The position numbers and the translations under genes were made by a program. Positions 59,162 to 64,000 of a stretch of 64,000 nt of DNA are shown piece by piece. The stretch is taken from the sequence record PQ014731.1; one strand, written 5' to 3'. Source of the DNA: Escherichia phage VB-EcoM-WM. Under the pieces are notes generated by a model that saw nothing but the letters and a program-made list of their open reading frames with translations, made no database searches and had not been told where the DNA came from. Position 1 is the first letter of the stretch; the number at the start of each line of letters is the position of its first letter.

Positions 59162-59635
59162 TTAGTCAACCTGAACCCAACCGCCTGCTACCTTTTTAAA
59201 CATTCTTTGGTTATCACTGCCTCGAAATGGTTTCTTGGTTGGTAAATCTTTTACATACTTTCCATCAATGACGATATCAGCCAGTTTAAGAACATCACTA
59301 GAGATATGCTCAAATGTGAACCCAGTATACACAAGAATAGTTTTCTTGTCACCAAACTTTTCCTTAATTCTCCTCATAAGGTCTATAATACCTGGCTCAT
59401 TATAAGTAGCCAAAGGCTCTCCACCAAGTAAAGAAATACCGCATACAGATTCATTGTCTAAATCCGACAAAATTTTCTGCAAATCTTCTTCGGTGAACTC
59501 TCTTCCTTTATCTTTTGACCAAAATGCTTGATTAAAGCAACCAGGGCAAGCGTGTGGGCACCCAGATACCCACAAAGCTGTCCTAATACCTGGCCCCTCG
59601 GTGTAAGATATCTCTGTGTATCCGACAATATTCAT
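59162..59635 (-). CDS. nrdG: anaerobic ribonucleotide reductase activating protein (radical SAM)
   Basis: CPHACPGC cluster, GPGIR and GISLLGGEP motifs; start adjusted to ATG 59635. Confidence 0.85.
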   Translation of the reverse strand: MNIVGYTEISYTEGPGIRTALWVSGCPHACPGCFNQAFWSKDKGREFTEEDLQKILSDLDNESVCGISLLGGEPLATYNEPGIIDLMRRIKEKFGDKKTILVYTGFTFEHISSDVLKLADIVIDGKYVKDLPTKKPFRGSDNQRMFKKVAGGWVQVD

Positions 59636-59748
59636 ACGTACTCCGCATCGCATTTAGGACAATGCCAAATAAAATCGTCCAGTGCCTTACACCAACGAAG
59701 ATTGCAACTACAGCCGCACTTGCAAATTTTATAAATACCTGATGACAT
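59632..59748 (-). CDS. small zinc-ribbon peptide (38 aa)
   Basis: MSSGIYKICKCGCSC...HCPKCD; strong RBS AAGGAGGT; stop overlaps nrdG start (ATGA). Confidence 0.45.
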   Translation of the reverse strand: MSSGIYKICKCGCSCNLRWCKALDDFIWHCPKCDAEYV

Positions 59749-59800
59749 ACTGCACCTCCTTAGTTAATAGCATGTTTAAGATATGTATATCTTTCTACAA

Positions 59801-60733
59801 TCATTTACCACAAATCCTCTTGTATACCTCTTCTACCGTGTCAAACACTTCAGGCCTGTAGTAGAAAAACTCAGTGCTACCGTCAAATTTTACAGGAAAG
59901 TTTATTTTATACTTGCTCAAGGCCTTATGCACAGATTTTTCTAAATCTACCATGTTTTGAGTTGATCCGCTCCATGTTTTTACTACGTGAAGAGTGTGGA
60001 CACCTGCGCCAGATTTACGAGCACTGTTAAGCACCTCATTTTTCCTCCTGTGCATTTTAACGCATACACCGATTTTCATAAGTGTTGGCACTTCTAAGTC
60101 ATCAACCATAATGTAGAGTTTACCGTACCCATGAGATAAGAATCCATTTTGTGCGCATTTACAGCAGCCACGACCACTTTTTAGGTTATTAGGTTTAGCA
60201 GACCACTTATACCCACAAATTTTGCACCTACATTGCACTTTTGTGTTATCATTGGCAATTTTCTCTAATATTTCTATGTCTGGGTTGGCTTTGTGGATAA
60301 TTGCAGCATGCTCCTTATGGGTTAACGCTTGACTTTGCCCACGTCTTAAGTCATAGCACTCTGGGCAACCGTTTCTTTGGTATAAGTGGTTTTCAGGGTA
60401 TTGTTCAAACACACCGTGTTCAGGGCAAACAATTTTTACAGGCGTTCTCATGTTCGCATATTTGACTAATGAGTAATCGTACTTGTCCCCATGAACAGCC
60501 ATAGCCTCTTTTATGAACTCTTCAGTGTTCTTTTTCGCTGACCCACCACACCTTGGACAACCATGATTCTTGAAAGCATGTGCCACAGGGGTTTGCCAGA
60601 ACTCACCGTGCTCAGGACAAATTATACACACAGGTGTCTTGTTGTTTTTATACTCCACTTTGAAGTAATCATATTTGTCACCATGTATAGTCTGAGCTTT
60701 TTCTATAAACTCTTCGGTTGTTAGTCTTCTCAT
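59801..60733 (-). CDS. T5orf172 (MUG113)-domain protein with three N-terminal zinc-ribbon repeats; free-standing homing-endonuclease-like
   Basis: Repeats CPEHG...H...GCPxC x3; C-terminal YGKLYIM...KIGVCV...GSTEFF resembling T5orf172. Confidence 0.6.
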   Translation of the reverse strand: MRRLTTEEFIEKAQTIHGDKYDYFKVEYKNNKTPVCIICPEHGEFWQTPVAHAFKNHGCPRCGGSAKKNTEEFIKEAMAVHGDKYDYSLVKYANMRTPVKIVCPEHGVFEQYPENHLYQRNGCPECYDLRRGQSQALTHKEHAAIIHKANPDIEILEKIANDNTKVQCRCKICGYKWSAKPNNLKSGRGCCKCAQNGFLSHGYGKLYIMVDDLEVPTLMKIGVCVKMHRRKNEVLNSARKSGAGVHTLHVVKTWSGSTQNMVDLEKSVHKALSKYKINFPVKFDGSTEFFYYRPEVFDTVEEVYKRICGK

Positions 60734-61821: not shown

Positions 61822-62583
61822 CATTATGTTCAAGGTGGTTCGCAAGGCCACCCCCGCACCTTTACGTGCTGCTGCATGTCCCCATGCAGATCAGACTATA
61901 TCTTCACACTTAGTGTGTCTACCATTTCGAGTGTCATCAGCTTACACCCTACACCGCTACATTCATCACGGTTAGTCGTTAGGCATTTCGTAACAGAACT
62001 CGTAATCATAGTTATTAGGTGCACCACGTTTCAGGATAGCAGATATTCTTTTTCTATCTATTCCTAAAACATCAGCACAACATCTCAGACTCTTAAAGTG
62101 AATAACCACACCAGTTAATTTGTGGGTGGCTTTCACCCCGTGACATCTTGTGTAAAAAGCATAACAGTTGTTGTCGTATCCTTCTTGAGTATTGTCTGGG
62201 CAAGCTCCCCACTCAAGGTTGTATACGCTGTTATCTTTCCTGTTGTCACCTTTGTGCTTAACATATGGTAAATTGTCTGGATTTGGTAAAAACGCTTCAG
62301 CAACAAGTCTGTGAACCCTTAGGCAAACAGTCTTTTTGTTCTTGCGTATCCTGACAAGACGGTAACCTGTGTTTATCTCTTCCCACGAATGAATAATTCT
62401 TTCATTTTCGTATCGGGTGCAATAAACATTGCCCATCTCGTCAATTTCATAACCTTCAAAATCACGAATTTGTTTTCTCATTTCAGGACTCCTCTTAGTC
62501 AGGAGTTCTGTTACGTTTAGCACGGGATTGTCCGTTCTGGAGTTTCCCCGTTTAGATAGATTTTACATGAGCAGTTATAGTTT
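61822..62583 (-). mobile_element. group I intron in nrdD
   Basis: Exon 1 ends ...TSMG on U; intron ends on G; P7-like GACUA / UAGUC pairing on minus strand; splicing gives SMG|CRSFL. Confidence 0.65.
61972..62523 (-). CDS. HNH homing endonuclease (intron-encoded)
   Basis: VHRLVAEAF...VKHKGDNRKDNSVYNLEWG HNH_3-type motif. Confidence 0.8.
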   Translation of the reverse strand: MLNVTELLTKRSPEMRKQIRDFEGYEIDEMGNVYCTRYENERIIHSWEEINTGYRLVRIRKNKKTVCLRVHRLVAEAFLPNPDNLPYVKHKGDNRKDNSVYNLEWGACPDNTQEGYDNNCYAFYTRCHGVKATHKLTGVVIHFKSLRCCADVLGIDRKRISAILKRGAPNNYDYEFCYEMPND

Positions 62584-63744
62584 ACCCATGCTTGTGACAT
62601 TACCTTCTGTTGAACCTGTCACTTTTCTATTTAGTGGTACAGATACGAAGTCAGGGTAGATACGTTCTGCACAGCACTCTAGAGCTAATCGTTTCAAATC
62701 ATAGTTAGGATCCCCAGGGTTCATGTTGACACCATCTTCTAAGAAGAACAGCACTTTAGGGAACACAGGTGTGATCCGTTCTTCACCAAGACCCATTTTG
62801 TGGACTTTCAAGTAGTTTTTGGTAATCATTCTACCAAAGACCGAAGTATCCAGCCCTAAACTTAATGTGATGAATGGAGTTTGCCCGTTGACAGAAGTTA
62901 ACGTATTGATTTGGTAGAGCAAAGTTTGCATACTATCAAACACGTCTTTATCTGTCATTTGCATTGCAACAGTCTCAGCATCTGGCAACCAATGTTCCTG
63001 ACAAAATTTAAGGTTCTTCTCGTAGGTTGCTTCAGCATACTGTGCCAGATAATGATCAATATGGCTCATGGTCTGACCACCATATTGAGCACTAGCTACT
63101 GCACTAGAGATTTGACTAAGGATTGTTGTTGCAACCCCTATTGACTTCGGCTTACTGACATGGGCGTTGCCAATGTTGAATCCGTTTTCCAGCATATCCG
63201 GATAATTTACCAAACAACAGTTTGTTAACGGACTGATCAAGTAGTCAAGATCATGCACATGGATGAAGCCCTTGTTGTGCTCTTCTGAGACACGATCTGG
63301 CAGGATCTGTGTTGATGCAAGGTGTTTGCTAAGGATGCCTGCAAGCAGGTCACGATGAGTGTGTACATGATTAGTAGGCTTATTTGCGTTTTCTTTTGTA
63401 AATTCATCACAAGTACGATCCAAAAAGCCACTAATATCTGCAAGCAGTTTTCCACCTGCCTCTCTGTTATTATCTCTTGTCTGTCTATACTGAATGTATT
63501 CTCTGGCTGCACATTTTAAACCCATATCCATAAGAGCATCTTCAACAAGGATATGGATATTTTTTACAGAGATCGTGCACTGGTCGGTCGGCAGATTGTT
63601 GGCAACAACTTCATTAACCGCGCAGGCAATCCGGTAAGCTTCTTCTTCAGTATGTCCAGACTCAAGTAAGGCGGACTCTGCCGCCTTGATCACCTTAATT
63701 CCGTTATAAAACTCTTCTCTACCGTCCCGTTTTACAACTTTCAC
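62584..63744 (-). CDS. nrdD: anaerobic ribonucleoside-triphosphate reductase, exon 1
   Basis: ATP-cone-like N-terminus VVKRDGREEF; GTG start overlapping upstream stop; exons sum to about 712 aa. Confidence 0.85.
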
Positions 63745-64000
63745 TTTTTCTCTCCAAAACCATTCTTAACAAAAGAGATGAAATCGTCAGCACCACCTAT
63801 GTGGATACTGTCAAGGTTGCTTTCCAAGAAGATCTGAGGCAACGTTCTGGGAACAAATGGGCTACACTTCTCGATAAGCTCTTCTTTTGTGTATCCTTCA
63901 CCAAGCGTCTTGTATACGAAAGGTATGCCTTTGCTGACTGCAAATTCTTTTGCTCTTACACAATGTGGGCAGTTATCCTTACCGTAAATGATGATGAAAA
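63741..64000 (-). CDS. glutaredoxin/NrdH-like redoxin (partial, 5' end beyond window)
   Basis: Minus-strand translation ...IIIYGKDNCPHCVRAKEFAVSKGIPF... with CxxC; stop overlaps nrdD start. Confidence 0.6.
   Translation of the reverse strand, partial: FIIIYGKDNCPHCVRAKEFAVSKGIPFVYKTLGEGYTKEELIEKCSPFVPRTLPQIFLESNLDSIHIGGADDFISFVKNGFGEKK

Follow-up and report, generated by a model that had tools for sequence, protein, structure and literature searches.

Escherichia phage VB-EcoM-WM (accession number PQ014731.1), of which a stretch of 64,000 nt (the window) was analyzed, carries on its minus strand a set of nucleotide-reduction genes that includes nrdD, nrdG, and, between them, a 38-amino-acid (aa) open reading frame (ORF), orf38, coding for a peptide with seven cysteines. 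We read the region, with a probability of about 0.42, as the standard nrdA-nrdB-grx-nrdD-orf38-nrdG nucleotide-reduction operon of a Vequintavirus coliphage, colonized by two selfish elements. The parts of this reading differ in strength. That orf38 is a real gene and that the operon has this architecture we consider close to certain; a functional link between orf38 and the class III ribonucleotide reductase, to which only its position points, is tentative, at somewhat under even odds.

A conserved small gene between nrdD and nrdG

The orf38 sequence (MSSGIYKICKCGCSCNLRWCKALDDFIWHCPKCDAEYV) begins 5 nt after a strong ribosome-binding site, TAAGGAGGT (59762 to 59754), and its TGA overlaps the nrdG ATG within ATGA (59635 to 59632). 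Its length alone is uninformative, as 107 ORFs with a length of 25 aa or more occur within 7 kb. An earlier note on this DNA had described such a Cys-rich ORF with a strong ribosome-binding site, had given the order as grx-nrdD-(T5orf172)-orf38-nrdG on the minus strand, and had pointed to overlaps at the nrdD and nrdG starts, and all of this is borne out, both being 4-nt stop/start overlaps (GTGA at 63744 to 63741 and ATGA at 59635 to 59632). The peptide is not unannotated, however, as that note supposed. It matches PHROG 20137 over its full length (residues 1 to 38 on a 38-position profile; E = 1.2e-29), a 54-aa variant matches the same family with an E value of 7.8e-21, and about 20 of 33 annotated rV5-like records have a coding sequence (CDS) under the orf38 match, mostly named "hypothetical protein." The remaining records miss it.

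Phages in which orf38 is annotated include EmilHeitz, DrSchubert, CarlMeissner, navn, CM1, and others. Records of the navn, nomo, and magaca type give it the name "putative anaerobic ribonucleoside-triphosphate reductase" and enter NrdG as "putative minor capsid protein." PHROG 20137 is itself labeled "ribonucleotide reductase," a label that looks inherited from annotation drift, and in the rV5 record the orf38 region is spanned by another, longer ORF (ORF 114) in a different frame. Nothing on the peptide was found in the literature; the family is already catalogued.

A tblastn search finds orf38 in 121 phage records, all rV5-like members of Vequintavirus, at 80 to 100% identity. This number is close to the sum of the records carrying either of two nrdG alleles (85 with allele A and 33 with allele B), so orf38 is essentially universal in the genus. 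Among 1.84 billion representative proteins, an exhaustive HMMER search returned only three true orf38 clusters (P0002, P0003, and P0005), which are a 41-aa variant, the 54-aa variant, lengthened at its N terminus by a Lys/Glu-rich segment, and a deletion fusion. The top match, P0001 (1093 aa), and P0004 (248 aa) were rejected as homologues, being repetitive and matched on several stretches. The 54-aa variant is found in phage contigs of ∼133 to 137 kb (L012 and L018) from a sister lineage, where it overlaps the nrdG start.

Comparison of the window with L012 and L018 illustrates the degree of constraint, with 85 to 88% identity in the orf38 core, 55% in NrdG, 49% in PhoH, and 60% in NrdD exon 1. 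By the Nei-Gojobori method, the proportion of synonymous differences (pS) in the 32-codon core of orf38 reaches 0.85, which is saturated, the proportion of nonsynonymous differences (pN) is 0.04 to 0.07, and the ratio of nonsynonymous to synonymous rates (dN/dS) is 0.03 to 0.13. Between the window and L012, about 14 of 17 synonymous sites are changed versus about 6 of 79 nonsynonymous sites (Fisher p = 9e-10). Twenty-six of the 33 core residues are invariant, including NLRWC, LDDFIW, and CPxCDAEY, and this constancy, beside an NrdG identity of only 55%, marks Orf38 as important to these phages. The invariant residues include all seven cysteines (C9, C11, C13, C15, C20, C30, and C33) and the motifs CK(x)CGC and CPKC; the short forms have CKC as their first knuckle and the long ones CK[HD]C, every cysteine being kept despite the indel. 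On this pattern of substitution orf38 is a genuine, constrained protein-coding gene, and because the seven cysteines are invariant its predicted product is almost certainly metal binding. The amino acid sequence is also kept where nrdG does not follow, and orf38 is therefore not merely a leader or a carrier of the nrdG GGAG.

Searches of other nrd loci, which the earlier note had proposed, extended the family across Vequintavirus and one sister lineage and yielded nothing in the nrd loci of bacteria or of other phages. A degenerate DNA motif of the orf38 core occurs in none of 185,579 genomes of bacteria and archaea and in only four phage-sized metagenome contigs. A hidden Markov model (HMM) of the family, run against the ORFs in all six frames of 80 diverse nrdG loci from viruses, found only its own family (L016 and L018). 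In Phapecoctavirus and Felixounavirus, orf38 is absent. Small zinc-ribbon ORFs of other kinds lie directly upstream of nrdG or overlap it in unrelated phages (L082, 2721 to 2978, and L060 to L062, 2660 to 3004), one of 85 aa ending ...CPKCNAEY... and one of 114 aa ending ...CSYCC...CPNCG, and these show no detectable homology to orf38 (HMM E values of 0.09 or worse). There is no general rule of a small Cys-rich ORF before nrdG.

Sequence and structure similarities of Orf38

The description of the peptide as a zinc ribbon in the earlier note amounts to a motif-level guess. Against Pfam at E values up to 10, orf38 finds only noise (DUF3797, 0.62; Cas12f TNB, 0.36), and a PDB search gave no relative, the best match being the small CPxCG zinc-finger protein 8q5b (E = 0.18, 22 residues aligned). 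The neighboring T5orf172 protein, with its zinc fingers, is not similar to Orf38 by BLASTP (E = 0.69). The family HMM gives E values of 0.1 to 15 against several phage NrdD C termini, and these matches, which had hinted at a mimic of the NrdD zinc ribbon, were rejected as a sign of homology, as hhalign aligns only an 8-residue W.CPxC knuckle. AlphaFold2 predictions are of low confidence, with mean predicted local distance difference test (pLDDT) scores of 57.7 and 55.5 (a single sequence and a 9-sequence alignment), and contain only a hairpin at residues 21 to 29 and a short C-terminal helix. Seven invariant cysteines in 33 residues are more than a simple Cys4 ribbon requires, and a binuclear site or an iron-sulfur (Fe-S) or redox center is conceivable.

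Organization of the region

The features of the region, all on the minus strand, are listed in the direction of transcription, each with the evidence on which it is identified.

63741 to 64000, minus strand: glutaredoxin gene (grx), 3' 260 nt, truncated by the window edge (Pfam Glutaredoxin and CPHC).
62584 to 63744, minus strand: nrdD exon 1, 387 codons, GTG start (Pfam; alignment to rV5).
61822 to 62583, minus strand: putative group I intron, 762 nt (Rfam RF00028; exon rejoining).
61972 to 62481, minus strand: putative HNH endonuclease ORF inside the intron, 169 aa from the ATG at 62481 (PHROG 59).
60844 to 61821, minus strand: nrdD exon 2, 325 codons plus stop (Pfam NRDD and Gly_radical).
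60887 to 60952, minus strand: divergent 3' tract of nrdD, adjoining the insertion (DNA alignment with L001 and L020).
60772 to 60832, minus strand: terminator-like hairpin with a T-run (60832 to 60815), then a promoter-like TTGACT-17-TAGTAT (60800 to 60772) (consensus scan).
59801 to 60733, minus strand: T5orf172 gene, 310 aa, free-standing and homing-endonuclease-like (Pfam; PHROG 681).
59754 to 59762, minus strand: Shine-Dalgarno sequence of orf38, TAAGGAGGT, kept in relatives (sequence; alignment).
59632 to 59748, minus strand: orf38, 38 aa, seven Cys (PHROG 20137).
59162 to 59635, minus strand: nrdG, 157 aa, radical-SAM activase with CPHACPGC (Pfam Fer4_12 and Radical_SAM).

The region matches 299 phage records by megablast, of which the top ones, rV5-like Escherichia phages of the genus Vequintavirus, are 95 to 96% identical across the full 4.9 kb. 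Genomes with the same arrangement at this level of DNA identity include navn and A142. In the type phage rV5 the order is nrdA-nrdB-grx-nrdD-small ORFs-nrdG-PhoH-ClpP (rV5 record; PMC3606486). The glutaredoxin fragment at the window edge scores 34.8 bits against PF00462 (cutoff, 22.9; E = 1.9e-8) and contains the CPHC active site.

About 25 GenBank records in the MG0656xx series titled "Campylobacter phage" (A142, A141, A13b, D1, C12, and others) are 95 to 96% identical to the region, and it looks as if the host label is wrong or the samples were contaminated. Directly past the nrdG stop there is a perfect sigma-70 consensus, TTGACA-18-TATAAT (12 of 12 positions), at 59129 to 59158 on the minus strand, which corresponds to promoter P118 in the rV5 annotation. 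Downstream of it is a 37-aa Lys-rich ORF (58986 to 59099, minus strand; MAKKALKKAYKKE...; PHROG 7670) that overlaps the next ORF, of 116 aa.

nrdD and its putative intron

The grx TGA (63743 to 63741) overlaps the nrdD GTG (63744 to 63742) in the first of the two 4-nt overlaps, and rV5, typing phage 14, and navn have the same grx/nrdD overlap in their annotation. Support for the GTG start comes from the Pfam ATP-cone, which aligns from residue 1 (profile positions 1 to 87 of 88). BASEL records begin nrdD ∼210 nt downstream of this GTG, which removes the ATP-cone.

The earlier note treated nrdD as a single gene followed by T5orf172, and this has to be revised, with nrdD in two exons split by a putative group I intron that codes for a predicted HNH endonuclease. 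Exon 1, within an ORF at 62575 to 63744, contains the ATP-cone (residues 1 to 91) and positions 1 to 263 of the 562-position NRDD profile, and exon 2, within an ORF at 60844 to 61851, contains NRDD positions 263 to 562 and the Gly_radical domain (E = 1.7e-24), the NRDD match breaking precisely at profile position 263. The exon limits come from alignment to the intronless nrdD of rV5; exon 1 ends AGC ATG GGT and exon 2 starts TGT AGA AGT, and their joining gives TSMG/CRSFLSKY as in rV5, with the intron between Gly387 and Cys388. The base before the intron is T 62584 (U), and the final intron base is G 61822. The glycyl-radical motif RRVSGY and a CxxC..CxxC zinc site (CLKC...CPAC) are both in exon 2. 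Together the NRDD domain, the glycyl-radical domain, and the C-terminal Cys4 site identify the predicted product as a class III ribonucleotide reductase.

With an ORF inserted in a loop, the window intron scores 32.9 bits (E = 1e-5) against RF00028, for which the gathering score is 50 bits. A metagenomic relative (L006) has an ORF-less intron of 251 nt with the same core at the identical site, and this scores 70.5 bits (E = 4e-18); the window intron is this core with an endonuclease ORF inserted in it. In the record of EmilHeitz, a BASEL phage, nrdD is already entered as a joined CDS that encloses a homing endonuclease. Exon 2 opens with the codon for Cys388, and this residue aligns to Cys290 of T4 NrdD, which we take to be the thiyl-radical cysteine.

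The intron ORF, listed from a GTG as 183 aa (61972 to 62523), most plausibly starts at ATG 62481, which is preceded by GAGGAG, giving 169 aa. It is related to the HNH endonuclease families PHROG 59 (E = 2.9e-33) and PHROG 959 (E = 5e-26), and it scores 20.1 bits against Pfam HNH_3, under the cutoff of 24.8; its similarity to the NUMOD-like domain of I-HmuI is also under the cutoff. Both navn (navn_81) and L012 have an ORF of the same 169-aa length at the equivalent place in the intron, the likeness being one of length and position alone. A second nrdD intron, near rV5 residue ∼284, is present in navn (L002), L012 (1274 to 4936), and JEP1, where nrdD is in three pieces. This second intron lies near the T4 I-TevII intron site, and the window has only the one between Gly387 and Cys388.

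Insertion of a T5orf172 gene upstream of orf38

The T5orf172 protein has a C-terminal Pfam T5orf172 domain (33.9 bits; cutoff, 20) and three treble-clef zinc-finger repeats, with matches to DUF723, CapR, DUF4379, and, weakly, MUG113, and it is related to the endonuclease family PHROG 681 (E = 7e-65). That the gene is inserted, as the earlier note held, is supported by its presence/absence polymorphism, at least 80% of the query being covered in only 13 of the 299 matching records. In EmilHeitz the annotated end of nrdD is 63 nt away from orf38, versus ∼1.1 kb in the window, and this short spacer contains TTGACA-N18-CATATT and a hairpin.

In the DNA alignment the window is near-identical to EmilHeitz until ∼60953, after which the final ∼65 to 100 nt of nrdD diverge; the C-terminal tail of NrdD is HVGNVDCCPLSK in the window, resembling that of L020, and HYGSCGC in rV5 and EmilHeitz. 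Past nrdD there is ∼1.1 kb of foreign DNA containing the hairpin, the promoter-like site, and the T5orf172 gene, and identity with insertion-free relatives restarts exactly at the orf38 ribosome-binding site. Counts of promoter and terminator signals in the consensus scan are not above the shuffled expectation, and these signals are a lead only. At the same site, typing phage 14 (O157) has another gene of the PHROG 681 family, coding for 386 aa. The divergent 3' tract of nrdD is interpreted as a co-conversion tract brought with the endonuclease gene, and together these features fit a free-standing homing endonuclease, with co-conversion on one side only.

nrdG alleles and linkage to orf38

NrdG is predicted to be the radical-SAM activase from its domains (Pfam Fer4_12, E = 3.8e-43, and Radical_SAM) and the CxxxCxxC motif, present as CPHACPGC with C26, C30, and C33 invariant. 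The start is at 59635 (MNIVGYTE), with a GGAG of its own within orf38 codons A35 to E36. An alternative start at ATG 59653 was rejected, as all NrdG homologues begin MN and the upstream ATG in L012 is immediately followed by a stop.

There are three arrangements of orf38 and nrdG. The window, EmilHeitz, and L006 have orf38 overlapping nrdG allele A. In the 33 records of rV5 type, including rV5, DrSchubert, and CarlMeissner, orf38 ends with TAA and is followed by 34-aa and 78-aa ORFs and then by nrdG allele B, with 53% identity to allele A. In L012 and L018 the 54-aa form overlaps a third nrdG allele, 55% identical. The ATGA is thus found with two different nrdG alleles (those of the window type and of L012/L018), being kept in the window, L001, L002, L006, L010, L012, L018, L097, and L100 and not in the rV5-type genomes, and orf38 lies between nrdD and nrdG in all of the approximately dozen loci inspected directly. 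Conservation of the peptide beside nrdG, as the earlier note envisaged, accordingly holds in that it is found in 121 records under strong purifying selection, although the pair is not fixed, the 33 rV5-type genomes being different. Where the ATGA is present, NrdG synthesis may be coupled to orf38 translation, beside initiation from nrdG's own GGAG.

Alleles A and B (window, 59162 to 59635, versus L003, 3501 to 3974) share their final ∼25 residues, which suggests that the swap was a cassette replacement with its breakpoint inside nrdG. The 78-aa ORF family (PHROG 3249) lies before nrdG in rV5-type genomes (L003, 3268 to 3504) and upstream of nrdD in L012 (1076 to 1261) and is therefore mobile around the nrd cluster.

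Possible roles of Orf38

In this reading, an intron with an HNH homing endonuclease splits nrdD directly before the codon aligned to T4 Cys290, and the T5orf172 gene entered the nrdD-orf38 spacer with its own terminator- and promoter-like signals, converting the last ∼65 to 100 nt of nrdD. Initiation of orf38 would be efficient from its own strong ribosome-binding site, and ribosomes ending at its UGA would sit on the nrdG AUG within AUGA. Orf38, made together with NrdG, would most likely be a dispensable accessory of the anaerobic reductase that may bind NrdG or the C-terminal domain of NrdD or supply metal or electrons. A more specific form of this proposal is unlikely, namely that Orf38 is a dedicated metallo-accessory of the phage class III reductase, in which the seven cysteines hold a binuclear Zn or an Fe-S/rubredoxin-like center and which docks on NrdG or on the glycyl-radical/zinc domain of NrdD, where it provides metal or electrons or acts as a gate on activation.

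Several observations weigh against a role in ribonucleotide reduction. The loci L017, L019, and L020 are syntenic, with nrdD and nrdG intact and with the downstream Lys-rich ORF, a 119-aa ORF, and PhoH retained, and are without orf38; no homologue was found in any other nrd locus in the phage or bacterial searches. A natural deletion (P0005) joins orf38 residues 1 to 20 to the C-terminal half of the rV5-type 78-aa ORF, and at least one phage thus tolerates loss of the C-terminal knuckle. Two other ORFs separate orf38 from nrdG in the 33 rV5-type genomes, and orf38 is near-invariant across three nrdG alleles that are only 53 to 55% identical, so there is no coevolution with NrdG. The nrdD-nrdG spacer commonly collects small ORFs and endonuclease genes. 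Much of this would be expected if orf38 were a real, constrained, metal-binding gene unrelated to ribonucleotide reduction, a host-directed or regulatory accessory with the nrdG overlap reflecting gene packing, which has a substantial chance of being correct, though a little short of an even one. The loss of orf38 with retention of nrdDG, the lack of covariation with the nrdG allele, and the lack of homologues in the other nrd loci searched all fit this alternative, as does the unrelated cargo of the spacer in relatives (34-aa, 78-aa, and 96- to 120-aa ORFs and endonuclease genes), of which the 78-aa family is found elsewhere in L012. The orf38 core is also far more conserved than NrdG or PhoH, which is in keeping with a partner, a host protein for example, that varies less than the phage enzymes do. 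What speaks for a link to the reductase is that the position between nrdD and nrdG is constant in the loci inspected, including a lineage with saturated synonymous divergence, that two of the three arrangements overlap the nrdG start, and that a Cys-rich protein suits a locus encoding two metalloenzymes.

Two minor explanations fare worse and are largely excluded by the selection pattern. It is distinctly improbable that orf38 is left over from, or a satellite of, the traffic of homing endonucleases at this site, either a zinc-finger module of a degraded endonuclease or a target site kept by endonuclease pressure. Two different PHROG 681 genes are indeed inserted directly upstream of its ribosome-binding site, the endonucleases bear CxxC...CxxC treble-clef fingers, and it is in typing phage 14 that the 5' half of orf38, which adjoins the endonuclease gene there, diverges most; but most genomes have orf38 with no neighboring endonuclease gene, and the zinc-finger relic was dropped given the BLASTP result with the T5orf172 protein. 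Saturation of synonymous sites while the protein is invariant places the constraint on the Orf38 protein and not on a DNA target. The chance that orf38 is nonfunctional, as a chance ORF or as a leader ORF or RNA element that delivers ribosomes to nrdG or terminates transcription, is very small. The ORF is short and shares the ATGA with nrdG, a terminator-like hairpin lies within it (59718 to 59703), and the Murica record has terminator and ribosome-binding-site features under the orf38 match, but the dN/dS values, the 26 invariant residues, and the maintenance of the amino acid sequence in rV5-type genomes where nrdG does not follow effectively refute a noncoding role. The terminator interpretation of the hairpin was rejected, as its stem bases vary synonymously, it is not conserved in L012, and it has no T-run.

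Implications for annotation

The main value of these observations is in annotation quality, as orf38 is missed in ∼40% of the inspected annotated rV5-like records and mislabeled "ribonucleotide reductase" in others. A corrected annotation would include a spliced nrdD with the GTG start, orf38 as a real gene, and the nrdG start at 59635. The locus is also a clean natural example of a pile-up of selfish elements on ribonucleotide reductase genes. Orf38 is of interest in its own right only if tied to NrdG or NrdD by experiment, in which case no earlier example of a small protein partnering an anaerobic reductase would have been described.

Comparison with known systems

Small cofactor proteins are encoded in other reductase operons, such as the YfaE ferredoxin with nrdAB, NrdI with nrdEF, and the NrdH redoxin, but these have no sequence relationship to orf38, which is dispensable in relatives, and we know of no small accessory protein for class III reductases. 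The CPxCG zinc-finger microproteins (PDB 8q5b) are, like Orf38, tiny and stand-alone with Cys knuckles including CPxC, although they have four cysteines rather than seven invariant ones. The CxxCG...W-x-CPxC knuckle pattern of the C-terminal Zn(Cys)4 ribbon of NrdD is also present in orf38, and the long orf38 variants share a CxxC-x18-CxxC spacing with some phage NrdDs, but the similarity is that of a generic knuckle rather than demonstrated homology.

The closest parallel is with phage T4, in which nrdD, with a group I intron coding for I-TevII, is followed by mobC and nrdG (PMC2988022), and split nrdD is the commonest split reductase gene in phages (PMC3653736). T4 and the window both have a free-standing endonuclease gene between nrdD and nrdG (PMC2988022) and a glutaredoxin-like gene nearby. 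They differ in the intron, which in T4 is ∼100 codons upstream (rV5 residue ∼273 to 285) of the Gly387/Cys388 site of the window and codes for a GIY-YIG rather than a predicted HNH enzyme, in the free-standing gene, which is the HNH gene mobC in T4 and a T5orf172 gene with zinc fingers in the window, and in orf38, of which T4 has no homologue. The nrdD-nrdG spacer is repeatedly occupied by free-standing endonuclease genes, as in T4, and the module as a whole is an already known arrangement in a well-sampled phage genus with a close T4 parallel.

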